DNA of 62,865 nt, counting the filler, from Globobulimina sp. (taxonomy: Eukaryota): NCBI GenBank assembly GCA_003354225.1. It is 35 parts of 35 records of this genome, joined end to end, with 100 filler letters (N's around TTAATTAATTAA, not from the genome) between each part and the next. Parts side by side here need not be neighbours in the genome. Positions count along the whole stretch, not along the records: positions 30,597 to 32,295 come from PIVH01012978.1; 34 more parts are not named here. One strand, written 5' to 3'. A program made the position numbers and the translations under genes. Position 1 is the stretch's first letter. Each line of letters opens with the position of its first letter. Below are positions 1,809 through 62,497 of the stretch, in pieces. The notes under the pieces were generated by a model that saw only the letters and a list, made by a program, of their open reading frames with translations, did not search any database and was not told the DNA's origin.

Positions 1809-3278
1809 ATGATTTCTTGTAGGTTGATAGTGTTTATTATATTGGTGTCAGTATCTTGCAAAACAATAGATTTAACATTGTCTGTTTCAAGCACTGATAT
1901 AATACGAAAACTGCCAGAAACATTCATTGGATTTAACCTTGATTATTGGGAGAATAATGAACAACACTTTGGCAATTCATCCATACCATATATTGACTTT
2001 TCAAATAAGAATTTAATTGCTTTAACATCAGCACTACAACCAGCGGTATTGCGTATTGGTGGAAGTGGCGAAGACTCAGTCATTTATAACATATCCAATG
2101 AATGCAATGAACCATGGAAATGGAACATCTCTGCTTCGTATTATTGCTCTGAAGTACATCCACCAAATTATTACTGTTTAACCAAAACTCGCTGGAAACA
2201 AATATTTGACTTTTTAGATGCTACAAATTTGAAATTAGTATTCTGATTAAATGCATGTTATGGTAGAAAAAGCAAAGAGGAACAAATGGATCTCAGTAAT
2301 ATCGATTCTTTATTATATTACACTGGAACATCAAACCATACATTAAATATATCGCGTTTGTATGGTTTTGAATTTGGTAATGGTATGGCTGGCAGTATAG
2401 ATTCACAAATATATTCATATGATTTTATAAGGATGAATACTTTGATAAATACATACTTTGCTAATTCTACAAATACAGTGCCAGTATCCATTGGTACTGA
2501 CAATCAATATAAAAACACGGAATATATCGAACAAGTATTAAATATGTCGAATGAAAGCATGAATATAGTAAATTATCATCAATATACCAACTGTCAGCAA
2601 CAGAAACAATATGTATTTGACAAAGATTGCTTAGCTGATATTACTTTAGTACCAGCACAATATGGCGAGATATTAAACAATGCACATCAAATAAACACGA
2701 CACTGATGGTTGGCGAATTAGCATTGGATCATTCTGGAGGACAGGACGGTGCATCCAATGTATTTGTGAGCAGTTTTTATTATATGTATCAATTAGCAGA
2801 ATTAGCAAAAGTGAATGATATGAACTTAGTACAAAGACAAACTTTAAGCGGTGGTTGGTATGGTTTATTGTCAAACAATAACAGTTTTATTCCAATGCCT
2901 GATTACTGGATACTTTATTTATGGAGAAAGTTTATTGGAAGTAATGTGTTGCAAACTTCGTTAACAAAGAATCAAAATGTTACTGGGTATGCATTTGACG
3001 GAAAAATGGACAAAGATATTGTTATTATTTTAATAAATTTTAGTGATGGAATTGCTGCCAATGTTGAATTGGAAGTAAATGGAGGTTTAGATATTAATGC
3101 ATATACATATCAGGAATATCATATGAATGGACCTTTAGATTCAGAAACGGCATACATTAATAACAAGCCTTTATTGTATCACGATGGTAAATTTCCAACA
3201 TTGGCAGCAAAATCTGGTGATGGCAATGTTGTGGTTGCGCCTGCCACCATTGTATGGATTCTATGTGTTCCACAATAA
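1809..3278 (+). pseudogene. Heparanase-like glycoside hydrolase family 79 with signal peptide; in-frame TGA at 2244-2246
   Basis: Motifs FIGFNLDYW, LQPAVLRIGGS, LVF*LNA (family LVFGLNA), VGE, VQRQTLSGGWYGLL and PMPDYW. Both ORFs are in one frame. Confidence 0.85.
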
Positions 3279-7201: not shown

Positions 7202-7538
7202 CAGTTTTTATCCATTTGGGATGTTGCTTTTCCGTATTTAGATCCCAGTTTCTTGATAATTTTATTCAGTTTGCTCTTTTGTATACTATCATATGAATGA
7301 GTATCTTTAAAAGAACCTCTTCGAGCCTTACCAATCGCGGTGCGGATAGCTGATACAAAATTAGCCACTCTAGAAACTAACACCTCAAAACAAGAATATG
7401 TATATATTAATTACCTGATACAATAACTACATCATCGTCATTGGGTGGTGATAAATATGAGGAGACGGAGGATGCCCGGATGTTTTTAGCATTGTATTTT
7501 GTGTTTAATTGGTTCGCGATATGAGTTATTCTATTCAT
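7202..7538 (-). CDS. Peroxisomal 3-ketoacyl-CoA thiolase, 5' part, with PTS2
   Basis: Spliced translation (intron 7414-7350) gives MNRITHIANQL..PNDDDVVIVSAIRTAIGKARRGSFKDTH. RITHIANQL fits the PTS2 pattern R[LI]x5[HQ]L. Similarity is lost after KDTH. Confidence 0.85.
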
Positions 7539-9001: not shown

Positions 9002-10701
9002 AAGCAAATTCAAAAAAGCAATAAAAGCCATTCAATCGCAAAGTGATGAAAAAGAAGAACAAAAAGTATGTGCATCACATGATATATATACATATTAAAC
9101 GACAAACAACCTACGTACGCTTTTTCAGCAACATAACGAACCCGCTCAAATTGCGAAACCAGTTAAACCAAAACGCAATTTACGAGGCGTAGTGTTGGTG
9201 CCATGCACAAAGTATGATATAATATTTATTTTATATAAAATATATAATATGCTGAGTATATGTACTATATACAATGTATAGAATGGAATATAAAGCACCA
9301 CGCAGAGCACAAAGTGCAGCGAGCATTGTTAAAACTGTCACAACTTCTTTCTTTTCATATGACACCAAAAAACCACAACAATTAAATACGCGTAAAGTGC
9401 AAAGGAGAGTTTTTAAAGCACCACAACATCGAATAATTGGCTCAACGAATAACAAAGTTATTATGATAGTGGGTCAAACTGGCGCTGGCAAAACAACATT
9501 GATTAATTCTATGATGAATTTTATTTACGGTGTGGAATATGCAGATCCCTATCGATTTAGATTAATTCAAGAAAAAGAAAAAAAAGAAGCGGAAAGTCAA
9601 ACCGATCATGTTTCAACATATCATATCAAACACGAGGATGGCTGGAGAATTCCATACGATTTAACTATTATAGATACGCCAGGCTTTGGTATAGGGGGAA
9701 TTGAGAAAGATAAGCAAATTACAGCTGATATTAGATTTTTTTTCGAGAAAATATTAGACGGCATAGACGGTGTATGTTTTGTGGTCAAATCAACCTACTG
9801 TGTATTCAATAATGCATTCAATAATGTATTGAATTTATGGGCAAAAGGTATTATAATTAAATTCAGAGAATGTAATCGATTCAGGGAATCACATAATATA
9901 AAAAATATTTTTTCGTTCAAAATTTGATTTGCTTACCTTCTCTGAAAGATTTATTGGAAAATATATTTGTTTTATTGACATTTTGTGATGGTTCAAGACC
10001 TCCGGTATTGGACGCATTGGCACAACATCAAACATTAAGACATTGCAAAGTATTTAGATTAAATAATTCTGTATATTCTGAAGATCCAACTCACCGTAAA
10101 CCACTCGAAGATGATTCATTTGATCAAATGTTTTGGGCGATGGGCACCAAATGTTTTGATGATTTCTTTAAATCATTACATACAACAAAATCTATTAATG
10201 AATGTCGCGAAGTACTTAAACAAAGAGAAGCAATTCAAGTTCAAATTGAACATATTTCCAACAGTGTTGACAATGCAGTATCAAATCAGCAAAATATTGC
10301 TGAGCAGGAACGTTTACTTAAAGCCAATAAACAAAAAATCAATCAAAATACAGAAGTATTCCATGAAGTAACTGAAGAAAAATGGGTGCGAAAACCCTCA
10401 ACGAGTTCGATTATAAACTGTTTCGATTGTCGCCATGGCCATAAAACATGTTGTAAAGGATGTAAAGCGAATGATCACAGTCCATATACGTGTTATGTGA
10501 TGAATGGTGATAATGTTTGCGATGTTTGTGGTTGTGATGCGCGTTCACATCGAAATGCATCTTATTATTATGAATGGCCAACATTTACTAAACGAGTAAG
10601 TGACTGGGATTGGATTCCACAAAAAGAGCAACATGCTCGGAGATTGATATTAAAAAAAGCTCAATTAGGTGTATCCAAATCAGAAATGATATTAAAAAAC
10701 T
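9002..10701 (+). CDS. Septin/AIG1-like P-loop GTPase with coiled coil and Cys-rich region (partial, 3 introns)
   Basis: GQTGAGKT and IIDTPGFG motifs. Intron 9848-9948 gives WAK|DLLENIFVLLTFCDG. CxxC clusters lie downstream. Confidence 0.8.
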
Positions 10702-11115: not shown

Positions 11116-12501
11116 TTACTTAATGCAGAATCGATCATCGTCGTCATCATCAGCAGCAGAAATAATATGATTGCAATCGGCTGGTTTCACAGTATAAGCA
11201 TCGTCGCACTCAGTGTCGAAACTTGTTGTTTTATCCTTCAACGTTGGAGCAAAAATCATTTCTGTTGTAGCATTATCTGCTTTTTTATTTTTTTTCTTAT
11301 ACCATTTATAAATAAATACAAAGAAACTGATCATTGCCATCACAAATACACAAAATACAATGGCCGCAATAATTTTCATGCCACCACTTAAATAATGTCC
11401 ATCGACATGCTTTTCTAAGAATAATTGCAATTTGGTATCAATTTGCAGGTTGAATCTATCCTTAAATTGAGTTTCAAAGCCATTCATCACTGAATCCAAT
11501 GACATTGTATTAATTTCATCGTAAATAGCATCATTATTAGTAATTATTGTCATTGATGCATTGCCGCTGTGATTGGATTGTAACAACAGCCTTCTTTGGT
11601 ACATTTTAGTTTTATCCCATAAACATGGTCCATTGTAACACCTATTTCCATCGACATTTCTCTCTCCGCCAGACACAGACACCTCAATATCACAAACATT
11701 AAACTCAAAAGTTATAAACCATTGCATAAATATTCCATACAGCCAACATTCTATGTCACTAAAATCATAAATAATCCATTCACGAAGCATAAAAACCACA
11801 ACTATACGAATGTCATTTTGATCTTTGTCACAATCATTACATTCTAATTCTTGAGTTGTAGCTATGTGGATTGTTGCGTGAGGAGCGATGGGTGCATATG
11901 TTGCTGATCCATGAATAATAGGTAAATTTTGTAAAGGTATATTAAATATACTGTACAGCATTTTGTGTCTATACATTTACAAAATTTACTGCCATGGTAA
12001 CTGAAGCATGGTTAAGCTAAGTATAAATACCTGGGGCTGGATTTGAAGTAACTAAGCATGAATCAAAATTACTACCAAAATCCCATTCAATTCCGGCCAC
12101 AGTGGACAGTACAACACCATTTGATTGGACAACTTGATTACTACTACTTGTAATTTTAAAATCAACCGAAACTGTAGATGACAAAAAGGGATTATCACCC
12201 ATTTGAAAGGAACAATCACCATTCTCAGTATAACCAGTCACCCATTCACTTGCATGCGATTGTTTGACTTGAACATCTGTACAATCTGTAATCACGCAAC
12301 CAGACACTAACGAGCTCATTATATTCTCGACATACACAGCCCACCACCACACCGGTGCTCCAACAGAGGGCGTTTCCAACGCAAATCCTAAAAAAAAAAA
12401 CTATTTCTGCAAATCTTTACAATGAAAAAAGAGTGCATGCAAAGGTACCTTTTACTTTAACACAAATGTTACCGTCAACACAGCCAGAGCCACCCCCATA
12501 A
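11116..12501 (-). CDS. Single-pass membrane protein with a possible expansin-like (CBM63-type) extracellular domain (partial, spliced)
   Basis: CVDGNICVKVK..WWWAVYVEN..VQVKQSHASEW..DFKITSSSNQVV, plus C-terminal TM IIAAIVFCVFVMAMISFFVFIY. Domain call is tentative. Confidence 0.45.
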
Positions 12502-12601
12502 NNNNNNNNNNNNNNNNNNNNNNNNNNNNNNNNNNNNNNNNNNNNTTAATTAATTAANNNNNNNNNNNNNNNNNNNNNNNNNNNNNNNNNNNNNNNNNNN
12601 N

Positions 12602-12901
12602 ATCCATATCAATACGTGGATTAAAATGCGTCAACATCAACCGGGAGAGACAAAACCGTCGCACCAGCTTCAAATCACCAGTCATCGAAACCTGTACACT
12701 TAGTTTCAAACTTTTGTATCGTTCTTTATTAATTGTTAATAATTTGTCAAATTTTTTGTTTCTAACATTTCCCAAATCAGACACTTCATAATTTGAACAT
12801 CCAACAATATCCTTCCATTGTTCAACTTTGGTTGAAAAGTTGTTTCTCAGAAACACTAAGTTCCCAAAGCCATTACATTTTCGGAGTAACAACAAATTCA
12901 T
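12602..12901 (-). CDS. NUMOD4-motif (HNH homing-endonuclease-associated) protein, 5' part
   Basis: EQWKDIVGCSNYEVSDLGNVRN matches the NUMOD4 pattern and is followed by LSRLMLTHFNP. Truncated by the contig end. Confidence 0.75.
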
Positions 12902-12998
12902 AGCTAGGTCGGTGCAAGGATACATTGTAACAAATGCATTAAACGGATACATTGTAACGATTTCAATTAACATTTGATTACATTAAATACGAACAAGC

Positions 12999-14997: not shown

Positions 14998-16101
14998 CTA
15001 TTGGTTTTTGGCCTGCTTCGCCATCTCTTGCATATATTGCTGTCTCCATCGGTTCAAGCCAGCATTATGTATGATTTGCAACACCGTATTTGTATTCTGC
15101 CTCCACAGCGATAAACTTTTCGACAAATCCACCCATGAATTTTTATTAAACGTCCGTTGTTTCACTTTTGTAATCTCAATTCGCTGCGTTGAATAATCGA
15201 TTTTCGCAGACAATAATTTCTTTGTAATGGCTAAAATCACCAATTCTTCCAACTCATTTTGCGAATCCAATTGCAATCTCTCCAACAACGCATCAAACGA
15301 ATACAACGGAACACGTGCACCCAACGTACACAATGTCAACAATCTCATCTTTTTTTGTAAATGCGTATAAACCAAACCTAACTCAACCATTTTCTCCGTA
15401 TTTTGTGCATAAAACCTCTCAAAATCACCCACTTCGCCTTGGTACACAATCTCTAACAACGCATACAATTCCGCGTATTTTGCTGTTTTGCGCATCACAT
15501 TGCAAATAATATCCGCATGCATTAATTGCATTACATTTTCCATGTCAAACTCCTGCGAACTGATCGCCGCAATGATGGCTTGGGCGGCTTCGTCCACCAC
15601 ACTCAAATAATCCTTTTTTTCATCCTCCTGATCCAAATCAAATAATCTTAAATAACAAATCAAATATTTTAAATATGTTTCCTTTTCCGCGGCCTTTTGC
15701 GCTACGAAGGCGGCGGTTTGATATAAGCGTTTCTTGTCAGATAAATTCAAATATTTATCCCAATCCTTCTCAATCCATTCAGATAAACCATCCAAGCGAC
15801 CAGCAAATAGTTGCTGTGCTAGCGTGCTTTTTATGCGAGTGCCCACGTCCAACAATCGCTGCATTACTACCACACGAAACTCATTCTCGCGAGGGATCAG
15901 ATTGAATAATAAACACAATCTGTGGTGTAATTGAATAGAATTGAATTGAATTAAATGAGTGCAAGGATGTATGTGTGTGAGTATATGGAGCAATGTATGA
16001 CTCAACAATTTGATATTTAATTTGTTAAATTTGTCCGTTTGCGCGGACAACAGAGTGGAGATTTGATCAATATTTGAATTCAATGTAGCAACGTTCTCAA
16101 A
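14998..16101 (-). CDS. EIF3M: Translation initiation factor 3 subunit M (PCI domain), 5' truncated; in-frame intron 16006-15920
   Basis: KKMRLLTLCTL, ELEELVILAI..LLSAKID and QRTFNKNSWVDL..L..WRQN. Confidence 0.9.
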   Translation of the reverse strand, partial: FENVATLNSNIDQISTLLSAQTDKFNKLNIKLLSHTLLHILTHIHPCTHLIQFNSIQLHHRLCLLFNLIPRENEFRVVVMQRLLDVGTRIKSTLAQQLFAGRLDGLSEWIEKDWDKYLNLSDKKRLYQTAAFVAQKAAEKETYLKYLICYLRLFDLDQEDEKKDYLSVVDEAAQAIIAAISSQEFDMENVMQLMHADIICNVMRKTAKYAELYALLEIVYQGEVGDFERFYAQNTEKMVELGLVYTHLQKKMRLLTLCTLGARVPLYSFDALLERLQLDSQNELEELVILAITKKLLSAKIDYSTQRIEITKVKQRTFNKNSWVDLSKSLSLWRQNTNTVLQIIHNAGLNRWRQQYMQEMAKQAKNQ

Positions 16102-16201
16102 NNNNNNNNNNNNNNNNNNNNNNNNNNNNNNNNNNNNNNNNNNNNTTAATTAATTAANNNNNNNNNNNNNNNNNNNNNNNNNNNNNNNNNNNNNNNNNNN
16201 N

Positions 16202-17901
16202 CTGCAGAACAATTAACACAAAATGTATCCATATCGGCAACATTTAATCCTTTAACACATTACGATTTGTCTCAGTATTTGACAAAGTTAATATTGATTT
16301 GCCATGAATGTGATGATCAATTTCATGCAGATATGCAACAAATATTTAGTATTAATAAAGAGACCAAAGAAAACACGAAATTAGGTTTGGTTTATATGCG
16401 AGGACCCGTTAAAAAATTAGAACGTTGTTATGCTAAATGCCAATCTGATTACAGAGATGAAAAATTCCCGACAGCAGCTCACGTGTTAGATATTGTGCGC
16501 TGTAGTTTAATATTTGAAGATGTCTCCTCAATGTTGCTTGGAATGGATTTATTTCAGGAAACCTTAAAAACGAAAGAATTTTGTATTTTGGAGGTGGCGC
16601 GCGTCAAAAATGGCTTTTTAAAAGGAAGATATGCTCATGAAAAGGGTACAGTATATACTTGATATATACTTGCTATATAAATAAAAAAATGATATTTATG
16701 TTCTATTTAATATATAGCACGTTATACCGATATTAAATTCAATGTTATGATACGCAGCAAGAAATATAATGTGATTGGAGAGGTTCAATTTTTATTTCAG
16801 AAAATGTTGGATTATAAAAAGATTGCCCATTCATTGTATAATATAAAACGTACCAAAGAATTTGTGGATGATTTATCGCTGATATTGCCGGTCAAATTAG
16901 ATTTGGAAAAACAATTATTTATCCATGCAGCGCGAAACAATATCAATGGTTTAACAGATTTGATGGTGACACATAATTTTAATCAAGAAATGTTGTTACA
17001 ATTAAATCAACAAAAACAGTCCATATTAACTCCAATTTGTTCCATAAATTGCCAGAAAACATTAAATTTCTTAATTAATATAATTGCGCATAATGACATT
17101 AAACAGATATTAATAACACAGGATTCCTCCGGGTCATATCCGTTGAAACGAGCCATTGATAATAATCATTATAACGGAGTCTTAAAAAATATATTTGAAA
17201 ACGAGCAATTCGGCGCCAGTTTAATTAGAGAGAAAGACCACGCTCAAAAAACTCCGTTAAGCCGATGTTGGGATAGTAATAACGGGCTATGTTCATTATT
17301 GATTTTAAAAAATATTAAAGATAGAAAACAATTATTATCCATGATTGAAGATACAACCACCGGTATTACCTCATTGCAATATGCATTGCAATCCGGTGAT
17401 GTACAATGTGTACAATTTATTTTCCAGCAATTACAATACAATGATAAATTAGAAACAAAATTATTAACTTTTAAAGATTCTCAGTCGAAATCCAACTTTC
17501 ATTATGCTGCCAGAGGTGGCAATATCGAATGTATTGAATTATTATTATCAAAATGTCAAAATGAGCAACAAAAAAAAGAATTATTTGAACAGGATAAAAA
17601 TTTCCAATCACCTGCATTCGAAGCAATATTACAAGGTAAAAGCGAGTGTGTCGACTTTTTATTAGCTCAAATGAATAAGGCGCAGAAAAAAATATTTTTA
17701 AATACTAAATCGAAAATATTTTTAAATACTAAAATATTTTTAGATCCAATTAAATGTTTAAGAATGTTCAAATCCAAAAAACATGTGGAAACATTTAAAA
17801 TTGTGTTGTCCCACATTGACAGCGATGATTTGGGACTGTACGCTGTGTTTTTATTTGCAGCGGAAAATGATTTTGTTGAGCTCGCCCAATTAATCGTAAA
17901 C
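16202..17901 (+). CDS. RelA/SpoT-like nucleotidyltransferase domain fused to ankyrin repeats (partial); intron 16646-16717
   Basis: GPVKKLERCYAK, LDIVRCSLIF, RVKNGF, YTDIKFNV and GEVQF, then ankyrin-like units (TSLQYALQSGDVQCVQFI, NFHYAARGGNIECIELLL). Confidence 0.7.
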
Positions 17902-21986: not shown

Positions 21987-23056
21987 TTAGAAACCTTTCA
22001 AATTACCATTGGAATCATATGAGGCAGCACATGCCAATGATGAAGCGACAAAATAATCGATCCGACATGATTCCAAAACTGTGACATTAATTGTTTGCGC
22101 AGTATCAACTGTTTCATTGCAAATATACGTAATCCGTTCTTCCGACCCAATTGCGCCGCCATTACAGGGCTCACCATTATAATATATAAATTCAAAAGTG
22201 CCACCATGTGCTGCACTATAACTTGGTTTATGATTTCCATTTTCCCAGTTTGCAATATACCGTTCACAAGTTCCAGTCGCAGTGTTATCCAATGAGCTCA
22301 TTACTTTCCTTGAACCACTTTGCTGAAAACAATTCAACCCATTTTGACACGGTGAGTAATAAATTCTATATCCATTATGGCCATCAAATCGTAGCGGATT
22401 AATCACTCGCAACGGGGCTAAATTCAATGTGGCAGATTCGCCTACAGTATATTGACAATTTGCATTCCGTGTATTCTCCGGAATACACGCTAATTTTGAC
22501 TCAATCGCTGTTTATTAATATTGTTATCTCAAACAGCACAATCAACAGTACATACTAAACTTATGTGATAGTCACAGGTTTGCATTTCCTGCACTCGATC
22601 CATGTACGCAACTGGTCCATTTTCAGCACACGTCCAATATATGGTGGTGCGTCTTGGCTGTTGAGTGAAAGAGCAAAATTCACCATTTTCATATTGGAAT
22701 ACAAACGATGCTGACGCAAGTGAGTAGGTTGGAGACTGTTTATTATCTACAGATAGATAATGATCGCACTGGTTTGCAGCTGGTATATACTGCGCCACAT
22801 TATTGGCAAAATTTGCATTTCCTTGCCTGCATTGAATACCATTGCGACAGGGTGTATAATAATAGGTTGCTTCTGCAGATAACGATAATTGAAGCGTCCA
22901 TTCTGATACAGATGTTAGATTTAATTCATATGGAGGACCTGCGCCATTGTTCACTGTATATATACATTCAAATGCATGTGTGGGCAGCATCAACGACAAG
23001 AAAAAAGTTAGTGGTGTCATGTTTAATACAATACCAAGGCTAGGTACAGAATTCAT
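21987..23056 (-). CDS. Secreted or membrane protein with two mannose-6-phosphate receptor homology (MRH) domains
   Basis: Two repeats of YYxPCxNGxxC..F.YxNGExC..R...y.C..C.Y...S.LAC. Intron 22560-22508 gives CDYHI|TIESKLAC. Confidence 0.8.
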
Positions 23057-23572
23057 AAAAATACATGACTAGTCATGAAAATAAGTAAATTTAATGTAAA
23101 CAGAAAAGAAACTAAACAGTAAACAAACGTACACAATTGCACGTACACACTGATAAACATTATTTAATAAACGTAAACTATAAAATAAATATAATAAACT
23201 AAAAAAAAATGGGGGGAAAAAAAAAGTAAAAGAATAAAAATATATAAATATAAAAAAAAAAAAAAAATTTCAATTATATCTGAGTCGATAATGAAAATAA
23301 NNNNNNNNNNNNNNNNNNNNNNNNNNNNNNNNNNNNNNNNNNNNTTAATTAATTAANNNNNNNNNNNNNNNNNNNNNNNNNNNNNNNNNNNNNNNNNNNN
23401 TAAAATCCGTAAATGAGGTTTTAAACTTTTAAAAAAACACTACAGTGACTACACTGTTTAATTGACATTTAAAATACAGTGGTTGATCTGGTATTGTCAC
23501 ATTCTAAATATATACACACAAACATTTTTGCTGGGTTTGTACTGAAAGTCTGAAACACTTATGCCCTGAAAC

Positions 23573-25487: not shown

Positions 25488-25664
25488 ATATCAACTGAAA
25501 TTTCAACTAATTCGTGACTTTTTTCAATATCGCAAGAAACCCCATGAATAGATACATTTATGACGTACAACCTTCATCAAGGTTCAAAACATATAAGGAA
25601 AATTAACTTGTGTGTCAATTGCTAATTGTGTAATAATAATTATTTCCAGCGATCAACAACAATT

Positions 25665-26898
25665 ATGACTGCAATAAAATCAAACCAGAACAACATTATG
25701 GATATTAAAAACAACAGAATTCCAAAAAATGTAAGGAAGATACATCTGATTGCCGTATGCGGGACCGGGATGGGTGCCCTTGCCTGTATGCTCAAGGAAC
25801 TGGGATTTGAAGTAACCGGTTCGGACCAGAAAGTATACCCTCCCATGAGTGATTTTCTGAGGGACAAAGGTATTCAGCTTGCCAACGGGTTTAATGAACA
25901 AAACATATCATACCGGCCGGATCTTGTGATTGTGGGCAATGCAGTGCGAAAGGATAATCCGGAAGTGCTGAAAATGGATGATATGGGGCTTTGTTTCTGC
26001 TCCATGCCCCAGGCTTTAAACACCTTTGCCGCTAAAGACAAAAAGCCTATACTGGTTACCGGAACCCATGGGAAAACAACCACATCGTCTCTTATGGCAT
26101 GGCTTCTTTTTAAAGCCGGACTTGATCCAACATTTATGATCGGCGGCATTCTGAAAAATTTTAACAGCAATTACCGTATCGGCAAAGGAGACCATGTTGT
26201 CATCGAAGGGGATGAATACGATACGGCGTTTTTTGATAAAGGCGCCAAATTTCTACATTTTGATCCACACATTGCTGTCCTGACAAGCGTTGAGTTTGAC
26301 CATGCCGACATATTTAACGACCTTGACCATGTGAAACAGACCTTTGGAAAATTCTTATCCGGCATGTCATCTCAAAGCACATTACTGGCATTTGACAATG
26401 ATTTGAATGTTGCAGATCTGATTAAAGACAGACAATGCAAAATACAAAATTACGGAAAAAATACAGACTCCTTCTGGAAACTTGATGGTATTTCCATTGA
26501 TCCGCCATGGACCCTTTTTAACGTTCTGAAAAACGGCACTCCCTTCGGGTCCTTTAAGGCACAGCTCATGGGAGAGCACAACCTGCTCAATGCGCTGTCT
26601 GTCATTGCGGCGGCAGATAACCTGATGGTACCGGCGGATGTAATTTCAGAAGCGCTGGAAACGTTTAAGAATGTAAAAAGGCGACAGGAAATACGCGGTG
26701 AAAAAAATGGGATTACGGTCATGGATGATTTTGCCCATCATCCCACGGCCGTCAGGGAGACAATCCGTGCAGTCAAACCCTTTTGCACAAAAGGAAGGCT
26801 TCTTGCCGTATTTGAACCACGAACCAACTCCAGCATGCGCAATATATTCCAGGATACATACACGCTTTCTTTTGATCAGGCCGATATTGTCTGTGTAC
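25665..26898 (+). CDS. mpl: Bacterial murein peptide ligase (UDP-MurNAc:L-Ala-gamma-D-Glu-mDAP ligase), 3' truncated
   Basis: IHLIAVCGTGMG, VYPPMS, GTHGKTTT, EGDEYDTAFFDK, EFDHADIF, DDFAHHPTA and FEPRTNS. Intronless. Start is at 25665 or 25698. Confidence 0.93.
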
Positions 26899-27008
26899 NN
26901 NNNNNNNNNNNNNNNNNNNNNNNNNNNNNNNNNNNNNNNNNNTTAATTAATTAANNNNNNNNNNNNNNNNNNNNNNNNNNNNNNNNNNNNNNNNNNNNCT
27001 CCCTCCTA

Positions 27009-29317: not shown

Positions 29318-30496
29318 ATGTCTTCCTGTCCCGTCAGATATTGCGGCACCATTGCAATTGCCACATGCGATGCAGACACAGACTGCGACTCCCAATGGAA
29401 TTTAGATCCAAATCAATTGCGTTACACATCCATCACCGTGCTGGCGACCATATTTATTTGTTGGTTGATGCAGGAAGTGCTGGAAAGAAGATGTGATATG
29501 GCGCCACAGATACGCACTCGCACCGAAATGCACCACGATGCAAAGAAGACAAATAACCCAATAAAGTCTTACAAATTGAACAGACGTTTGACAAAATCGT
29601 TAGATTTGAAAGGTCGATTTCGTATTCAAAGACGCGGTTCGATTCATTATATTAAATCAGTATGGTCAGTGTTGTTATTATTAATGACGGCGATATTTGC
29701 GACACCCCAATGGTCCATGGATCACTTTGTCAAATTGGATGCGTCGACAGTTAATTATGGGCCGTACCAACATATTGCCGCATCGATAATGGCTTTTTAC
29801 TGTTGGGAGGTGGCGACAAACCGGTATGGAAAATTGGATTATTCTGTTTTGATGCATCATTGGTTGACAGCTGCAGCCGGTTTGAGCATTTTGCTGGGTT
29901 TTTACACTCCATTTTCAACCTGGTATGGCATTGCCAATATAGGCATGAGTTTCATTGTCGACTTTACGTTGGGGATTCGGGCGACTTTTGCCAATAAAAT
30001 TGGACAAACCACGCGAAGATTGTTTACGTTTACATACTATTATTATCTCTGTATAATGTGTTTGGTGTTTGGTGGAGAGATCTTTTTGATTATTAACGGA
30101 TTTGTGACTGCAAAGATACACATTGCGAGCGAAATAACCATGATATTGACCTGTTGCTGCTGGGCCTATGACGACCTGCATCTTTTGAAAGCACTTTACG
30201 AATTCAGTACGCATCCATATGAAGATGCAGAGGTATTTAATAAGAAAGCAACCTCGAGAGAAATGGGTGGAGTTTAGTACTGTATATATATATTAATATT
30301 AATATTAATGTTATAATGTATGCTGTACATATATACACAGAGAGAATTATTTGTTCTTAGTGTGCTTCACGATATCGATGTTGTGCGCCAAGTGAGTCCT
30401 GGGATGGAGGAAGAAGCAGCAGCAGCAAAGGGAGGACAAGGTGCTGTATTAAAACATGTAGTTTTGTCAACTAAATTGAAACACGGAAACCAGACA
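29318..30496 (+). CDS. TLC (TRAM/LAG1/CLN8)-like multi-pass membrane protein; intron 30272-30340
   Basis: FYCWE..VLMHHWLT motif, several TM helices, and in-frame exon joining. Confidence 0.6.
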
Positions 30497-30737
30497 NNNN
30501 NNNNNNNNNNNNNNNNNNNNNNNNNNNNNNNNNNNNNNNNTTAATTAATTAANNNNNNNNNNNNNNNNNNNNNNNNNNNNNNNNNNNNNNNNNNNNCGAT
30601 AATTTTAAGTAAAATTAAAAACAATGTTTATTTCCACGGAGAAATCTTACGTTTAAACTGTTTTTAATCGATGTGAATATGTAAAACGTTGCATTTTTAT
30701 CCAGGAAAATGCTGCTAAGCACACACGGAGTGATACG

Positions 30738-31403
30738 ATGAATAGCGAATCGAATAACAAATTGCCACTGGAAATACAGAGAAATTCAGATGTTTCATTG
30801 AATACAGTATCGGATTTTCCTCAACCACAAAATATGTTGAATTCTCATATTGTATCACCTTCGGTTTCGACAATAGAGCCAATTGAGATGAGTGCCAATA
30901 ATAAAAAAGAGCAAGGCATTGCTGAACGAAATGGATATATTTCCAAAGAGAATGGCATAAATTATATAAAATATTTGGATTCCTCTTCCAATGGTGGTTC
31001 GTGTTGGCATTACAAATCGAAATTATTTTGGACATGGTTCATTTATTTTTTTTGTTTTTGTGGCAATGGCTCTGTTTGTAAATGTTATGTTTGTCTCTGT
31101 AAAATCCCAATTTGCAAAAAAAGAATGCAATCAAGGAAACATGTGATGAATTTTATGTTTTCTGCCGCCAAAAAAATACAATATATTCGATATTATCAAC
31201 GATATCAGGCGCAAACATTTAACTTTATGTCAAATTGTCAAACTACAAAAAAGCGACGACAGAAAAAAACATCCTCATTACACAGCATTAATGAAACTGG
31301 AATAGTTAATAATATTTCTCGTGAGCAAGAAAGCAGTGACGAGGATGCAGAAAATAGTGCAATCCCTCGAGGAATATCGGAATTGACTGCTCAGAGTGAT
31401 TGA
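30738..31403 (+). CDS. Unknown protein with a Cys-rich hydrophobic segment (probably a 3' exon)
   Basis: 221-aa ORF with no recognisable family. Confidence 0.45.
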   Translation: MNSESNNKLPLEIQRNSDVSLNTVSDFPQPQNMLNSHIVSPSVSTIEPIEMSANNKKEQGIAERNGYISKENGINYIKYLDSSSNGGSCWHYKSKLFWTWFIYFFCFCGNGSVCKCYVCLCKIPICKKRMQSRKHVMNFMFSAAKKIQYIRYYQRYQAQTFNFMSNCQTTKKRRQKKTSSLHSINETGIVNNISREQESSDEDAENSAIPRGISELTAQSD

Positions 31404-31546
31404 AAAAAAAATGTCTTTGTAAGAAAAATATTCATTTAGATTTTAATGAGCCACTAACACAAAAACGCATGCTTACAAATTAATAATTGTGTGCAAGGAT
31501 GAATGTAATGTGTTTTTTGTTTATTTGGTAGTGATTGCAATGATAT

Positions 31547-32031
31547 TTAGTCCTCCTCTCTTGTCTGCATCTTAGTGTGTCCATTGATGACACGGATTCC
31601 TAATTGGTTTGCGAGCCTTAATGTTCTTGGTCGCTTCTTTGCAGATAAAGTGTTGCTGAATTCTGCAACGTAACAGTCGTTAAACATTAATAACATCCTC
31701 AAGTCCTAGAATTATTTTATTTGTATGAGTGAGCAAAAAATAACGTATATCATCACTAAACTCCAGGTGTTTTGACTAAAAATTTAAATTTCCCGTCTGC
31801 TTTCCGTCTATATCTATCTCTGTTTGCTGTTCTGTATCCAATATTAGGCATTTTACGCACTCCATGCCATCTTCTTCTTACTCTTGAATCAATTCCTCGT
31901 GGTTTTCGCCACGATGGACCCACACACTTAAATCTATCCGATTGATGACGAATGAATCTTTTTGGCCGAGGTTTGGCTTCTTTCTTCCAACCCTTTCCTA
32001 CTGCTCTAGGCTCTCTTGGATAACGTCCCAT
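31547..32031 (-). CDS. RPL32: 60S ribosomal protein L32 (eL32); intron 31761-31706
   Basis: [25 protein letters not shown] and MPNIGY. Exon 2 reads [33 protein letters not shown]. Confidence 0.97.
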
Positions 32032-32395
32032 TATTTGATTGCAAAAGGGTCGCTTGGTTGCTATTATCAATTGAAGATAAAGTTTTCACCAACTTACAGT
32101 TTTTAAGATGCAAGGTCCGATGAATCGGAAGTTTCATCAGATCATGGAAATGTATCATCTATATCGTTTCACAATATTTCGTTCAATCACATTGTTTTTT
32201 GTGTGCGCTCTTGATTGTACGCTATCGGATTGTTATGCTATTAAATGTTGTGGTACGTACGTATATTACCATATATCCGACTACCTACCATTGGTNNNNN
32301 NNNNNNNNNNNNNNNNNNNNNNNNNNNNNNNNNNNNNNNTTAATTAATTAANNNNNNNNNNNNNNNNNNNNNNNNNNNNNNNNNNNNNNNNNNNN

Positions 32396-41389: not shown

Positions 41390-43056
41390 TAAATTATTAA
41401 TAAATGATAATGTAAAGCCAAATAATTGATATTTTGATGTGGTTTGTAATAAAATCCATTCATTATCACCAAACATTTGCTTATTTTGTATCCATATTTC
41501 ATAAAATGTTGCCATGTTTTTTGATTTTCTATCAGGTGTTATAGATATTTGTTGATTATATGGTAATATGATATATATTCCGGTCATTGCCATACTATAA
41601 CAAACACCCAATGACATATCTGCAATGAATGTATTTTCAAAAAGTTCAACTTTTTTAGGTGTCTTTTGTGACCGTATGTTACCTGAACCACATTCACCAT
41701 TTGGACCATAACCAAACATATATAAGTTACCATTTTCTGTAATCACTCCAGAATGCAAATGACAACCTTTACATTTTATAGCTTTATCATTCTTAATATT
41801 ATTAAAAAAATCAACTTGTTTTGGTTTGGTTTGATAGGCTTCATTTCCATGACCTAACATTCCATGATATCCCCAACCCCATGAATATACTTTTCCATCA
41901 TCAGTAACACATAAACTATGAAGATTGCCACATGCTGCATCAATAACACGCATCGAACTTAATGTTTCTATTACTTTCGGTGAATGTTGCACTCGTCCTT
42001 TATATCCTAATTGTGCATATTCATTGTCACCCCATGATGTAAATAATTTATAACTTTAATACCTTCAATATATGATGTAAATAATTTATAACCCCATGAT
42101 GTAAATAATATATGCACAATTTCATATTCTTTAATACCTTCAATAAATTTTGGTGATTTAATACTTGTTTGATTGCCATGACCTAATTGTCCAAATGAGC
42201 CATCACCAAACGACCATAAACGACCATCTGCAGTTAATATTAATGAATGTTCATAACCAACAGCAACATGTAATGCTTTATATGGTGCTAATAACTGTGG
42301 AATATATATATTCTCATTATTTCCTGTTCCTAATTGTCCTCTGCCATTACCTCCCCATACAAATACATTTCCCTCTCTATCAATTGCTAAATTATGTAAT
42401 GTCGTAACTACAATCGCATCGATCACTGCTTTGTGTTGTGTTAGCAATAAATTTAATGCTTCATAATTTGACAATTGATGATCCGAAACATTTAAAATAT
42501 CTTTCCATTTTAAAATATTTTCTTTGCTGATATTAGTATCTGTTGTTTTTGTTATATGTGCGATATTAAACAATGTGGAATAAAAAACCAATGATCTGTC
42601 AATGTTGTATGATTTTGTTAATTGCGCGCCACCTTTAATGAATGCAGTCATTTGTGTAATTCTTTCATTTTTTTCAGTCGATTTAATATTATTTATTGTC
42701 AATAATAATTTATCAAATCCTTGCCAACAATTCGCAGCTGTACATTTTAGCGCATTTAATAATGCATATTCAATCAATAAATCACGTTCTGTCATACCGT
42801 CATATTTATCAACGGCAACTTTCGATTCATTTGGCTCAGCTTCATTATCACTGAAATTGTCTTCAAATTCATCCCATTCATCCTCATTTACATCGCGATC
42901 GTGTTTAATTTCTTGGATGTTTTCTTTACGTTGATTTGTAAAATAAGATTTAATCACATTTAATAAATCAAACTCTTGATGGCTATCTAAAATAGCAGCA
43001 ACTAATTCAATTTTACCAATTTCACTTAATTTTGGACATAAATCTAATAAAACCAT
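41390..43056 (-). pseudogene. RCC1-repeat protein disrupted at about 42030-42110
   Basis: GNVFVWGGNGRGQLG, VGYEHSLIL and ACGNLHSLCVTDDGKVYSWG. One blade has lost its ACG..HS..LT segment and the frame shifts. Confidence 0.8.
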
Positions 43057-52420: not shown

Positions 52421-53666
52421 ATGAATTCACTCATCAATTTAATTTCAATCATAACAATCAATTTTCTGATTTCATGCAATGCGTTAATTGTTGAACATAA
52501 TTTTGATGCAGGAGTTAAGACTTGGCAATGCATGACGTGTTTTAATGTTTGTTATTTGATAATAATAATATGTGTATTGTTTAAAAGATGAAACCATTTT
52601 CTTATCAAACATTTTCTGGCGTTGCCATGTATGCGGCAAAGGATGCTCCGTCTCATTCATCCCCAGGAAATGGCAAATCTTACATTGATTTTGATTTAAT
52701 ATTAGAAAGAGATAATATTGAGGGCGGAGCCGTTTTTATCGAATTAATAGTAATCCCAGATATAAACATCAATGATATTGGAATAAAAAAAGAAGGCAAT
52801 TTACATTTATGTTGCAATCAAGAGTTATATGGAAAGTATGGATGTACATCGGACACACGCGGACAATTAATAATACCCAAACAAATTCGTGGTTTGTACA
52901 GGGAACAAATACCAATGGAAGGCGCAACATACCATCTTAAAACAGTTTAGTAGTTTTATTATATAATTATATGATGCGAATATGCGTAAATAATACACAG
53001 AAGGCACCCGTGGAGGTGACCGCCATTCACGTGTTTGCGTTGTCGTCATGTGATTCCCGTTTGCAATTAGCATCGGGAGAAGAGACCTCCATCACATTCA
53101 GTGGGAGCACGCGATGGATGAACCCGTATGGCCATTTACCCGGTGATGTGTACGGATATTTGCCATTTTATGGTTGGATGTGTATCATATATTTGTGTAT
53201 AAGTATAGTATGGTTTTGTTTTAACGCCATATATTGGTCGCAATTGTTGCATGTCCAAAACTGCATAACTGGCGTCTTAGCCATGTGTTTAATAGAAATG
53301 GCGACGTGGTATTTCCACTATTTGCATTTGAATAATGTGGGCGTAGTGCATCACGGCCCGTTTATATTGGGTTTGGTGACGACGTGTAGCCGCCGCATGG
53401 TCTCTCGTATGTTGGTGGTGGCGGTCTCCATCGGTTACGGTGTGGTGCGGCCCACATTGGGAAAGACCGTGAAAAATAAAATCATTATCTTGGGCATTGT
53501 GTATTGGATATTTGCGTTTATGTTCGAATCGCTAATCCATTATAACCAAACCGAGAAAGTCGAGTCGTGGATGCGAGTCATTCTTATCCCGCCGGTGGCC
53601 ATTATAAATGGCATATTTTGGTGGTGGACCTTTGTATCTTTAAACAAAACCATATATATATATTAG
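52421..53666 (+). CDS. TMEM87/GPR107-like (lung 7TM, GOST family) protein; introns 52514-52587 and 52945-53000; appears C-terminally truncated
   Basis: Signal peptide, WMNPYGHLPG..LPFYG, QNCITGV and VSIGYGVVRPTLG. Stops after WWWTFVSLNKTI, before the last helices. Confidence 0.88.
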
Positions 53667-54954
53667 TACTAATATATATTAGCAAAATATGTTTCCCATA
53701 AGTCAAAAAGTGTTACTAAGTGACAGTTTATATAGTACTTCGTTTCTATACATTTGACTACTTAGTTAGTTACTTGAGTTGTTTATTCGACTATGTCCTA
53801 CTACATGAAAGTAGATGCTACCGTTTCCCACGTGCACCCTCTTACCAAGGGGGAGGTTACCCAGTGTTATGCCAANNNNNNNNNNNNNNNNNNNNNNNNN
53901 NNNNNNNNNNNNNNNNNNNTTAATTAATTAANNNNNNNNNNNNNNNNNNNNNNNNNNNNNNNNNNNNNNNNNNNNAATTTTGACATTTCTGCAATATTTG
54001 GTCATGTGCTAACTGTTTGGTTTTTGTCTGTATTTCGTTTCGAATTTTTACATGAAAATCCTTCTTTCAGTTATTTTATTTTGTTCATTTAATAATGTTT
54101 CAAATATTATATTTTTGATATGATGTTGATATGGCTTTGTTTGTTTGTTTGTGACTCCCAATGACTCCTTTCTTTGTTTGTAATGCCATTTTATTTTTTG
54201 TGTCACCAGTTTCGTTTTGCGATGTGTTACGTATTTTTTTTTTGTTGTCATTATTTCGTTTGAATATTAATATTTTGTACAATCACTACTATTCACCATT
54301 GACAAATTATATAATTTTATAATAATAATCGGGAGCATTCCATTCCGGTTATTTCATTTTTTTTTTTTTGCTTTTTAATTTATTTCTTTTTGTTTTATTT
54401 TTTAATTTTGCTTTTTTCTTTTTATTGGGGTTTGTGGTGAATCAGTTTATATTCAACAATAATGTATTCTATATTTCATTTAATTGTTTCTATATTCTGA
54501 ATTTTCCTTTTTTTTTTAAATAATATGGTGTACTTATAATATTATTGTATTGTTTAATTTTGTATGTCTTACTCAGGCTATATCAATTAATCTGAATATC
54601 TCATCGATTCGTACAATCGTAAATAATAATAATAAATAATAATAATATAATTTAATGTTTAATATCTTTGTTAATTAGTTATCATTAATTTTGGTTTTTA
54701 TTGTATGTTATGTATAAATATATAAATTATCATGCGAACTGATGACTAGATCCAAAGTTTTGAAGAATAAGTTTACTGTTTTTTTGGCGTTTTCATTTCG
54801 GATTTGTTGGCATTTTCTTTTTCCTTCAAAAACTATATTTAAAAAATTCTGAGATGCAGTGCATAAGTTCTCCGGTGTCAAATAATGGATAACATAACGC
54901 TTCGCTGAACTAGTAATAATTCGAATAAAAAAGTTTTGGCTTTAAAAAAAAAGC

Positions 54955-56105: not shown

Positions 56106-57075
56106 ATGGCAGCAGACGAACAGTCACAATATTCACTGGTAGTTAATGAAGATGAGGACGAAAACCCACGAGTGGTAAGTATCAATTATTTGAATGATCG
56201 TAAAACACGTTTAACATTCTGGTGTATGGTGTATTTTGTTAATGCGATGGCAATTAATAAGTATTTAATTCAACAATTTTATGTTTATCAAAATACAGGT
56301 TCTACGCAAGTTTTAGCATTATCAATTACTGCAAATATTTGTTTCTTGGGTGCATCAGTCATATTAATGTGTAGTATGTATTGTAAGAGTTGTAAGGCTA
56401 CAAATCTTTGGGTGTTGTGTTCTGCTTTCTTTTTTTTTGCAGGATTTATATTTTGCGGTGCAGCTGTTATCCGAGGTAAGTTATTTAATAATTCTATAAG
56501 TTATTTGATAATTATTACAAATAACAATAACAGGGATAACTCTTACATGCATTCATGGGTTCCATTGGAGGGATTTATTTGATAACACTGCTTGGTGCAG
56601 AATTGCATTTGAAGGACGTTTCTTATTTTTTCAATTATTTTCTATTTTTTTAGCAGTTGATGTTGCTCTATCGATTGGTGATGAGATAAGAAAAAGGTTA
56701 TTCTTTACGAGTTTGTTTTTGGCGGCAACTGGGTATTTACAAGGCGTTTTTTATGCTCATCAGCTATATGAACAGCGGCATTCACGTTGGTCAGATGCTG
56801 CGGATTTATATCCATATCGTACTGTATGTACTGGATATTTTGTGGTTGGTATTATGAGTTCATTTATTGTGTTATTTTCTTATTTTGATGGATTGCAGAA
56901 AAAAATGAATTCAACTGTTGCAACAATCATTTCATTGCTTTTATTGGCTGGAGTTGCTGAAGCAATATGGCCATGGATGAATTATTCTGCTTATTTGATG
57001 AATTATTCTGTTTATTTGATGAATTATTTTTCTGTTGCTTCGTTATTGGTTGTTTATGATTTGTATCATTTGTAA
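56106..57075 (+). CDS. Unknown multi-pass membrane protein with one intron (about 56477-56532)
   Basis: GAG|GTAAGT..AACAG joins ORFs 56106 and 56713 in frame. Confidence 0.65.
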
Positions 57076-57767: not shown

Positions 57768-59182
57768 TTATCCTAACACATTTCCATCAGTATCATAATT
57801 TGAACCATTCCCCATTTTATCCGCTTCGTTTATTACATTCCGATAACTCTCACAATTCTTACACGAAATAAACGGGGAACACAATAATTCATAATATTTT
57901 TTGGTAAACCCAAATGACAGCCAAATACAAAGTGCATTGACTGTGGAATCCACCACCGACGAAAATGTCGGATACAACGTCCAAAGACCAAATCCCAAAC
58001 CAAATGTACTAAACGCACTCCATGCGGACAATATACTCAATTTCAACATTATCGGCAAGAACTTATGAACAATGCTCGGCCTTTGCTTCCGTTTCGAATT
58101 ACTTTTCCCCCTCAACTTCCAGCGCAGAGAACTGAATATATTGCTCGCCGACGACACAGAGGACGCATAGCCATGTTTTATATGCGTATATTTGGAGGTT
58201 TCCACTGCTTTTTTGCATGTGACTGACACAGGAGCAGCATCCGCATCTATCGCCAATTTATAATCAGAATCGATATCATATTCAATAACACCTTCCGCAG
58301 AGGTTTCAGAATCAGTGTCGTCGATTTCCATCGCGAGTTCATGCTCACTCACTGTAATCCCATCAGGTCGGATCATGTCGCAATAGTTGTGCATACAGCT
58401 ACATTTTGACACATCTTTGCTACTTTTGCCATCACTCTGATTAGATTTGATTTTCTCGATCATTTCCTGAGTATCCTTCCGTTCCATGGCTGTCTGGTTG
58501 GACATTATTTGAGTGAGTTTGCGCAGTCTGAGATAGAATAAAAGCAAACAGGTAAAGCTCCAAATAGCATCACACGTAGCTCCAGTCCATATGGTAAGTG
58601 TCGAATATTTTGAGGCTTCGAACTTATCGCAATCTGCGGGAGATGTTATGTCACCGACCGCTGAGAAGTCAATGTATAAGAAAATCATATAAAAACTGCC
58701 GATCGTGCACCTGGAAACAGTGCGAATTGGTTGACAGTACTAATATAATATTAGTTGACAGCACTTAACATTAGAAAAAAGAAACAGATTGCCACCGAAC
58801 CGATGATTTTCGGGTTGTACGCTAAGAATGAACCTCTGAAGGATACGTGTACCAATGTCATGTAATAAAAATACATGGCGAGTTTGCCCATCATGAAAAA
58901 TACGATGTTGAATGTCTGTGCTTGACAGCTGAGAACCATGTATGGTATGTTTAGCTGAGGTATGTAATATAGAGATTGGATGAGATATAACATAAATGAT
59001 ACGATGACAAATGTGGTGTATCCGAATAACGAAATGAATGAGAATTTCTTGACGAGAGAATCCAGCAAGACACCATTTTTAATTACATAAACGTTGTATG
59101 TATAGTGGGTGAACGATGTGATTAGAAATAATGCGAAACCAGCAGACAAAATGGTAAATGTCAATGTCAGATACGGACCCAT
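57768..59182 (-). CDS. GPCR-like 7TM protein; intron 58769-58711
   Basis: Seven hydrophobic segments, a long third intracellular loop and VDSTVNALCIWLSFGF..YY..LC. Confidence 0.7.
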
Positions 59183-61183: not shown

Positions 61184-62497
61184 ATGGCTCAAGTATATGC
61201 TTTGGCGAATAGTGATATCCCCGTTGGACCAATAGCAATTATGCCGGATGTACATTGGGGTAAAGGTTCTGTTGTTGGCGCCGTATTTGCAAACAAAACA
61301 AAAATATGCCCAATGGCAGTCGGTGTAGATATTGGTTGTGGAATGACTGCGATTAAAATGAAGACACTTAAAAAACATCAATTATCGAATAATATTCCAT
61401 TAATGAAACGTATTCAATATAATCTTAAGTCCAAAATCCCAGTCGGATTCAATCATCATCAACGTCTGCAATCCGATGCACATAAATCTGTACATGATAT
61501 TGCCAAAAATGCAGAGAATTGCAATCCATCCAACTGGCTCCATCGATACATATCAAGCAATCAAATAATTGCGCTCCAATTAGGTATATACAATATCACT
61601 GCTTGTGATTAGGAAACAGTTTGATTTCATGTTTGTTTTCATCTCAATTAAGGTACATTGGGCGGAGGTAATCATTTTATTGAAGTACTGCATGAAGATG
61701 TGAATGATTTGCGTCATTCTCCGACACATCGGACACAGCATAGAGTAAAAAGGAAATATGAGCTGGATGGAAATGAAGAAAGTGCAGTTTGGTTAATGCT
61801 CCATAGCGGATCGCGTAGAATTGGAAACCACACAGCTTCGTATTGGGAAGAAGTGGGCAAACAGAAATATACGCGGAGTGGTAAGGATCCATTGCATTGG
61901 CTGCCAATTGATAGTAAGGATGGACAGAGCTATATAAATGATATGAATTGGTGCCAACAGTACGCATATAAGAATAGAGAATTTATGTTGAATGCAATGA
62001 TACAATGCATGGAAGAAGAATGTAAGGCTGAGGCAGATTGGGATACATTTATAAATATACACCATAACCATTGCAGATGCGAAATATGCAATTACGTCGA
62101 TAATAAAACAGGTGATTTCATACAAAATGAGGAATTATGGGTCACTCGAAAGGGTGCAACTAGCGCAGAGTTGGGAGAGGTTGGAATAATACCTGGTAAT
62201 ATGGCGCATGGTAGCTATATTGTGGAAGGGATGGGGAATAGTGAGAGTTGGAAGTCTTGTTCGCATGGAAGTGGAAGGCGAATGGGCAGGAATCAAGCTA
62301 AAAAAAACATTTTACAAAAAGATTTTCTTAAACAATTGGATGATGCAAAGTTAATTTGTGATAGAGATTCGAGATTACGAGATGAAGCACCACAGGCATA
62401 TAAGGATTTGCATGAGGTTATTAATGCACAAGTTGATGCTGGTATTGTTAAAATAAAACACAGATTATTACCTCTTGTTAATGTTAAAGGTTTTTGA
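61184..62497 (+). CDS. rtcB: RtcB-family RNA ligase, bacterial (E. coli-like) type; intron 61584-61652
   Basis: MPDVHWGKG, VGVDIGCGM, QLG|TLGGGNHFIE, LHSGSR, HHN, TRKGA, SCSHGSGR and DEAPQAYK. Confidence 0.95.

Follow-up and report, generated by a model that had tools for sequence, protein, structure and literature searches.

A frequent second class of intron starts, GTTNAG, in a Globobulimina sp. genome window is consistent with out-of-register pairing to U1

The stretch of Globobulimina sp. DNA analyzed here (hereafter the window; 62,865 bases, ~32% G+C, gene-dense) contains ordinary GT-AG spliceosomal introns with a distinct and frequent 5′ class, (A)/GUUNAGU, which occurs beside an exon-side class, AG/GUA. 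This GTT class is real in the window and statistically sharp, comprising about four in ten of the resolvable introns (7/17, or 7/19 when two ambiguous introns are included), where an earlier note on the same DNA had estimated roughly a third. Judged from sequence, the class appears to match the out-of-register U1 pairing already known, though its frequency is undescribed for any organism that we found in the literature. All seven GTTNAG donors listed in the earlier note were recovered at their positions and on their strands (7/7; Table 1), and its statement that the last exon base is never G and in five cases A held on recounting (five A, two T, no G).

The seven introns sit in six unrelated genes across 43 kb, range from 53 to 87 nt with an A+T content of 64–81%, and all have U2-type ends, starting with GT and ending with AG (7/7). 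Position +5 is A in all seven, +4 varies (U in four, A in two, G in one), and four carry GUUUAGU. AG at +5/+6 is present in 7/7 GTT donors compared with 65 of the 2192 GTT sites on both strands of the window (3.0%; binomial p ~2e-11), and AGT at +5 to +7 in 6/7 compared with 28/2192 (binomial p ~3e-11). Their boundaries were tested without using the motif, by reading frame, homologues or transcript-like contigs, and choice by motif therefore does not explain the AG enrichment. Specifically, one boundary is supported by transcript-like contigs, five by colinear homologues and one, that of the 7TM protein, by frame alone. The motif is not sufficient for splicing, since at least six sense copies of GTTNAGT within read-through open frames (8574, 15387, 25081, 26289, 34795 and 58014) give no sign of splicing.

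Several special classes of intron were considered and rejected. Alignment of the seven introns left only G1, T2, T3, A5, G6 and the terminal AG invariant, and the lack of whole-intron similarity is at odds with a transposon-derived introner family. Selection for an immediate in-frame stop (GTT TAG) suits just the three phase-0 GTTTAG introns and is hence not general. The U12-type 5′ site has the consensus [AG]TATCCTT, which occurs in 0/7 GTT donors, and minor introns were discarded on this basis. No snRNAs of the minor spliceosome are reported for Rhizaria in a published survey (PMC11347168).

Table 1. Introns of the GTT class and individually described introns of the GTA class in the window. 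The slash marks the exon-intron boundary.
Intron	Coordinates	Strand	Length (nt)	Phase	Class	Donor	Positions −3 to −1	Remarks
eIF3m	15920..16006	-	87		GTT	aatt/GTTGAGTC	ATT	in frame, no stop
MRH-domain protein	22508..22560	-	53	1	GTT	ataa/GTTTAGTA	TAA	
TLC-like membrane protein	30272..30340	+	69		GTT	tgga/GTTTAGTA	GGA	
RPL32	31706..31761	-	56	0	GTT	tgga/GTTTAGTG	GGA	acceptor TTCTAG
TMEM87/GOST-like, intron 1	52514..52587	+	74		GTT	agga/GTTAAGAC	GGA	sole GTT site without T at +7
TMEM87/GOST-like, intron 2	52945..53000	+	56		GTT	aaca/GTTTAGTA	ACA	
7TM protein	58711..58769	-	59	2	GTT	taat/GTTAAGTG	AAT	acceptor TTTCCAG
Comparison intron	12388..12448	-	61		GTA	AAG/GTACCTTT	AAG	T11-AG acceptor; frame only; sole alternative donor makes a stop
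Ankyrin-repeat gene	16646..16717	+	72		GTA	AGG/GTACAGTA	AGG	AGT at +5 to +7
Classical-donor intron	56476..56533	+	58		GTA	GAG/GTAAGTTA	GAG	GAG/GTAAGT; spans a frame shift from one ORF to the next
RtcB	61584..61652	+	69		GTA	TAG/GTATATAC	TAG	G at −1

The RPL32 intron is absent from transcript-like contigs and present in an evenly covered run. In run X3, two contigs join across the intron, whose minus-strand ends are GT and AG; depth on the RPL32 exons is in the thousands, against zero in the outermost flanking bins, and adapter letters occur at the loose ends. The kind of run is not recorded, and X3 was called transcript-like from its depth. Run X2, with an even depth of ~5 in 30/30 bins, keeps the intron in one 498-letter contig, and in run X1, from a related source with 90–99% likeness, one contig also skips the intron, connecting 31702 with 31761 through two odd letters. 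Pfam Ribosomal_L32e matches exon 1. The read comparison covers positions 30597–32295 and, with them, the RPL32 intron alone among the seven.

Five further GTT boundaries were examined against homologues. The spliced TLC-like product reads 'REMGG/RELFVLSVLHD', and 'GGR.L' spans the junction in 6/7 fetched homologues, the seventh stopping at '..IGGV', that is, at the junction point. An alternative pair (donor 30267, acceptor 30344) was rejected because it would remove the GGR conserved in the homologues. The spliced MRH product, 'CDYHI/TIESKLACIPENT', is colinear with 4/4 homologues with zero residues gained or lost, one of them (P0163) reading 'CDYHLTIESPLACIPENT' across the junction, and the cysteine spacing equals that of the second repeat of the protein. 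A donor 9 nt downstream would insert three residues, against the colinear homologues, and was discarded. Splicing of the first TMEM87-like intron yields 'HNFDAG/MKPFSYQTFSG', identical to a metagenome contig (L001, 'HNFDAGMKPFSYQTFSG'), and at the second junction 'HLKT/KAPVEVTAIHVF' is colinear with 'HFNE RAPVTVTAIHVF' of L001. This contig runs as a single 557-aa open frame through both junctions, which are also colinear with the database proteins P0031 and P0032; in the metagenome scan, each of six loci was one long open frame without introns. An in-frame TAG directly follows the donor of the second TMEM87-like intron, and upstream GTs were rejected as its donor since they would lose at least 16 residues.

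Reading frame is uninformative for the eIF3m intron, because its 87 nt are in frame without a stop. In a tblastn comparison of a homologue (P0035) with the window, a 29-residue gap corresponds exactly to the 87-nt intron, and 'N[IL]KLLCLLFN' spans the junction in 5/5 fetched homologues, two of which are named as MMETSP transcriptome entries. Alignment with PDB chains was limited to the C-terminal PCI part, outside the intron question, and a profile search with the eIF3m alignment found no relatives among the genome contigs and viral contigs. The nearest named relative of the eIF3m protein is an MMETSP entry labelled 'Ammon…' (51%); that of the TMEM87-like protein is from Reticulomyxa filosa (59%), and further relatives lie at 90–94% protein identity. 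Both named relatives are foraminifera, and by these matches the DNA was read as that of a foraminifer or a close relative. For the 7TM protein, the donor is the single frame-compatible GT for the TTTCCAG acceptor, its basis being frame alone.

Two short database proteins of relatives have unusual ends: P0147 ends '..GGV', just where the TLC-like intron falls, and P0032 ends '..VQVNYIYIYI'. Both look like gene calls that continue past the end of an exon and read into an intron starting with GT.

For comparison, ten GTA donors were resolved in the window (1135, 4704, 6453, 8004, 9066, 9212, 12448, 16646, 56476 and 61584; one acceptor of this set lies at 9128). Nine of the ten rest on frame alone, and motif support exists for RtcB (61584), whose spliced product contains 'QL-G-TLGGGNHFIEV', a motif that we take to be conserved in RtcB, with Pfam RtcB on both exons. 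The donor at 16646 is the sole frame-compatible GT ahead of a stop. ORF-bridging GT..AG pairs were listed automatically and, the raw list being too noisy, used only after editing; the intron list is incomplete, since it passes over small exons and masked parts. The RCC1 junction at ~42062, the third GTPase intron (9848 or 9872) and 12030 were left out as ambiguous. Candidates at 6092, 11807, 28175, 53203, 8574, 25081, 58014 and 34795 were rejected because the reading frame continues straight through, and those at 23117, 20136, 48241, 59978 and 7482–7512 because a gene begins or ends there.

The two donor classes differ on both sides of the boundary. AG at +5/+6 occurs in 7/7 GTT versus 2/10 GTA donors (Fisher p=0.0023), and G at −1 in 0/7 versus 7/10 (Fisher p=0.0098). 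The claim of the earlier note that GTA donors mostly have G at −1 is thus borne out by seven of ten, but the contrast is less sharp than it had implied, as three of the ten lack this G and two carry AGT at +5 to +7. These two, GTACAGT (16646, plus strand) and GTATAGT (1135, minus strand), indicate that an AGT placed one base late is not confined to GTT donors. The thiolase that the note had counted among the GTA genes found no counterpart, no thiolase family being matched by Pfam among the 114 ORFs of at least 90 aa.

We compared the pairing of both classes with the U1 5′ end (AUACUUACCUG, as printed in PMC4856993), assuming a standard U1 for this organism. The seven GTT donors form 2–5 pairs in the canonical register versus 7–8 in the +1 register, with the shifted count higher in 7/7. 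Crude free energies, which force all possible pairs, were calculated for three registers (canonical, shifted and bulge). For GTT donors, the canonical energy is positive in 7/7 (+0.9 to +6.1 kcal/mol) and the shifted register has the lowest energy in 6/7 (+0.5 to −3.6 kcal/mol), corresponding to weak predicted duplexes. The description of these donors as the U1 consensus shifted by one base, given in the earlier note, therefore agrees with pair counts in 7/7 (7–8 versus 2–5) and with the best crude energy in 6/7, on the assumption of a standard U1. At the eIF3m donor, a +3 bulge register scores above the shifted one, and at the first TMEM87-like donor, without +7U, the shifted score is ~0. Among GTA donors, the canonical energy is best or equal-best in 8/10, reaching −10.7 kcal/mol with eight canonical pairs at 56476; the donors at 16646 and 1135 favour the bulge register, which at 16646 is best with −6.7.

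The most likely reading, to which we give somewhat better than even weight, has a standard U1 5′ end paired to sites of the GUU class with an offset of one base. The U1 of this organism would presumably have the standard 5′ end (ACUUACCU) and pair in the register proposed. In such a duplex, −1A would pair with U10, +1G with C9 and +3U with A7, and on the intron side +5A, +6G and +7U would pair with Psi5, C4 and A3, leaving +2 and +4 mismatched; equivalently, +3/+4 could be drawn as a bulge of one base or as an asymmetric loop. With C9 taken by +1G and U10 opposite −1, the shifted register should not select for G at −1 and should favour A there, and the GTT donors match this prediction (G in 0/7, A in 5/7). 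The cut at GU would be set by U6 and U5 rather than by U1. In addition, the AGA of U6 ACAGA could form contiguous pairs with U2, U3 and U4 of GUUU in the normal register, so that the site might hold U1 shifted while U6 is unshifted.

A variant second U1, or a single changed U1, could instead pair with GUUNAGU in the normal register, as in Entamoeba. Such a change has precedents in Entamoeba, where ACAAAC replaces ACUUAC and matches GUUUGU, and in a Mastigamoeba variant (bioRxiv 10.1101/2022.06.08.495308), and two U1 species could serve two coexisting donor classes. Against this, +4 varies among the donors (U in four, A in two, G in one), as is more readily expected of a mismatch or loop position than of pairing to a dedicated complementary snRNA; the GTA class, including the perfect GAG/GTAAGT at 56476, fits standard U1; and most lineages with odd donors are reported to retain standard U1 (bioRxiv 10.1101/2022.06.08.495308). 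We consider a variant U1 unlikely. Rfam at gathering scores returned 0 matches in the window, with no U1 or U6 gene there.

Alternatively, U1 pairing may be of minor importance, with the two classes reflecting a split into U5-class (AG//GUNNN) and U6-class (NN//GURAG) donors and GUU..AGU held by U6, U5 loop 1, U1C or LUC7. A two-class model of this kind, with anticorrelated exon and intron information, has been described in diverse species (PMC11732430), and the same anticorrelation appears here in the −1 and +5/+6 counts (G at −1 in 0/7 versus 7/10; AG at +5/+6 in 7/7 versus 2/10). GUUU can also pair contiguously with the AGA of U6 ACAGA (scheme in bioRxiv 10.1101/2022.06.08.495308). However, the normal U6 register puts A5 and G6 of GUUNAG opposite C and A and thus unpaired, so that it leaves the conserved AGU unexplained, and a shift of U6 would misplace the cut. 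Compared with NN//GURAG, the intron-side class of the window has an extra U after GU and its AG(U) one base deeper, although it shares with the published classes the anticorrelated exon-side and intron-side information (PMC11732430). We regard this explanation as fairly unlikely and retain out-of-register U1 pairing as the preferred one.

Shifted, bulged and asymmetric-loop U1 registers have been proven in human cells (PMC4856993; reviewed in PMC9311317): the shifted register by Roca & Krainer 2009 (cited via PMC4856993 and PMC9311317), and the bulged and asymmetric-loop registers by Roca et al. 2012 and Tan et al. 2016 (PMC4856993). According to the same study, validated non-canonical registers account for ~1.5% of 201,541 human sites (PMC4856993). 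The human shifted-register sites, as these sources describe them, resemble the GTT class in having a GUUAAGU-type donor without G at −1, pairs moved by one position and a cut at GU. They are, however, rare exceptions, whereas the class here makes up 7 of 17–19 introns and is known from sequence alone; in addition, +4 is mostly U in the window, which would create a second mismatch unlike in the human sites.

The asymmetric loop 1 (+3/+4) and bulge +2/+3 registers offer a second likeness, with GUUUAGU in 4/7 GTT donors and AGU at +5 to +7 facing U1 positions 5–3 (PMC4856993). The oligonucleotide that was used to test the asymmetric loop, ACAG/GUUUAGUAUA, contains GUUUAGU, and the asymmetric-loop 1 class comprises 52 human sites after curation (PMC4856993). 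Yet the human asymmetric-loop sites retain AG at −2/−1, which anchors the normal register (PMC4856993), while the GTT donors have G at −1 in 0/7; membership of asymmetric-loop 1 was consequently rejected despite the 4/7 with GUUUAGU, and the shifted description is favoured. In Entamoeba, GUUUGU(U) donors occur in ~88–90% of introns together with a co-evolved U1 (bioRxiv 10.1101/2022.06.08.495308), and resemble the GTT class by having U at both +3 and +4 and a preferred base at +7. They differ in having G at +5, near-uniformity and a changed U1, whereas here G is at +6, +5 is A in 7/7, and the class coexists with GTA donors. An Entamoeba-type transformed donor was therefore rejected, given +5 A in 7/7 and a share of only 7 of 17–19 introns.

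From these 17–19 introns in 63 kb, we infer that the GTT class extends genome-wide. More tentatively, and with rather less than even confidence, we propose that in foraminifera or in this lineage out-of-register U1 pairing is a second main mode of intron-start recognition, as opposed to a seldom-used rescue, serving a fifth to two fifths of introns. A hint comes from the relative R. filosa, for which Table S4 of an intron survey gives 36 minor, 2,011 minor-like, 615 hybrid, 29,850 major-like, 6,244 major and 11,851 'non-canonical' introns (PMC11347168). The last category, with donors that resemble neither consensus, amounts to 23% of 50,607 introns, compared with 4% in Plasmodiophora brassicae in the same table; the authors leave the R. 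filosa figure undiscussed, and the table is silent on donor motif (PMC11347168). This is an independent hint of many unusual donors, for which poor annotation is an alternative explanation. A recent rhizarian genome paper tabulates R. filosa with two introns per gene, averaging 87 bp (PMC13746701).

A local or sampling effect would mean that the class is real in these genes and not major genome-wide, or that its share is inflated by under-counted GTA introns. The window of only 63 kb, the incomplete intron list and the apparent truncation of two host genes speak for such an effect. It is countered by the spread of the seven introns over six unrelated genes and 43 kb, with no mutual similarity beyond splice sites, and by the many donors unlike the major consensus in the annotation of R. 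filosa (PMC11347168), and we judge it very unlikely. In the literature on foraminifera and Rhizaria, which we searched without the R. filosa genome paper, where a remark is possible, no description of GTT-type donors was found.

If the proposal of a second main mode were true, no earlier organism would be known to have a genuinely two-register code at its 5′ splice sites, and the same code could account for the 23% 'non-canonical' annotated Reticulomyxa introns. Splice-site models built from GTRAGT training data would overlook or wrongly place some four in ten such donors; gene models would then be systematically wrong in foraminifera and their relatives, which are ecologically important and whose genomes are few and poorly annotated. 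A common non-canonical U1 register would also provide a natural test bed for uncoupling U1 binding from the choice of cut by U6 and U5, which has so far been approached through rare human sites and minigenes only.

Pfam analysis of the 114 ORFs of at least 90 aa identified RPL32, eIF3m/PCI, SAP18, RCC1, GOST/TMEM87, RtcB, VIT1 and HEAT-repeat families, as well as bacterial- and phage-like ones. Every 1,800 bases the window carries a masked block, N44 + TTAATTAATTAA + N44, and ORF ends at these blocks are artificial because the 12-base island stops all six frames. The eIF3m frame (16102–16560 region) lacks the first 111 residues of the homologue P0035; beyond the masked block, the minus strand contains no such coding stretch and the plus strand carries the adjacent ankyrin-repeat gene. 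The eIF3m gene is 5′-truncated, or else masked blocks conceal more than 100 bases. The TMEM87/GOST-like gene (53650–54900, plus strand) loses sense after '..SLNKTI', with no GT there, and ~190 C-terminal residues of L001 and of the homologues P0001–P0003 are absent from the whole window; this copy looks truncated, or the assembly broken.

A GH79 glycosidase frame is interrupted by a single in-frame TGA at 2244–2246 (plus strand), at which no intron fits. The ORF before it reaches column 126 of the Pfam profile and the ORF after it starts at column 128, so that the stop takes the place of one residue; it could be a pseudogene mutation, a sequencing error or a read-through codon. Between 32351 and 37744 (minus strand) lies a run of closely spaced ORFs without introns, each stop abutting or overlapping the start that follows; it contains matches to a phage head-completion protein and, below the Pfam gathering score, to the C-terminal domain of T4 gp5, as well as PT repeats. 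This region looks like phage- or bacterium-derived DNA within a eukaryotic contig. A bacterial-type Mur ligase with N-terminal, middle and C-terminal domains (25626–26951, plus strand) and an ORF with a NUMOD4 motif (12557–12982, minus strand) lie among eukaryotic genes and are candidates for horizontal transfer. Finally, in the RCC1-repeat gene (41990–42140, minus strand), AAG/GTATTAAAG recurs through a tandem duplication of ~75 bases, which shifts the frame; a clean RCC1 repeat would result if the bases separating the two TTATTTACATCATGGGGT copies were excised, though this stretch is without GT..AG ends.
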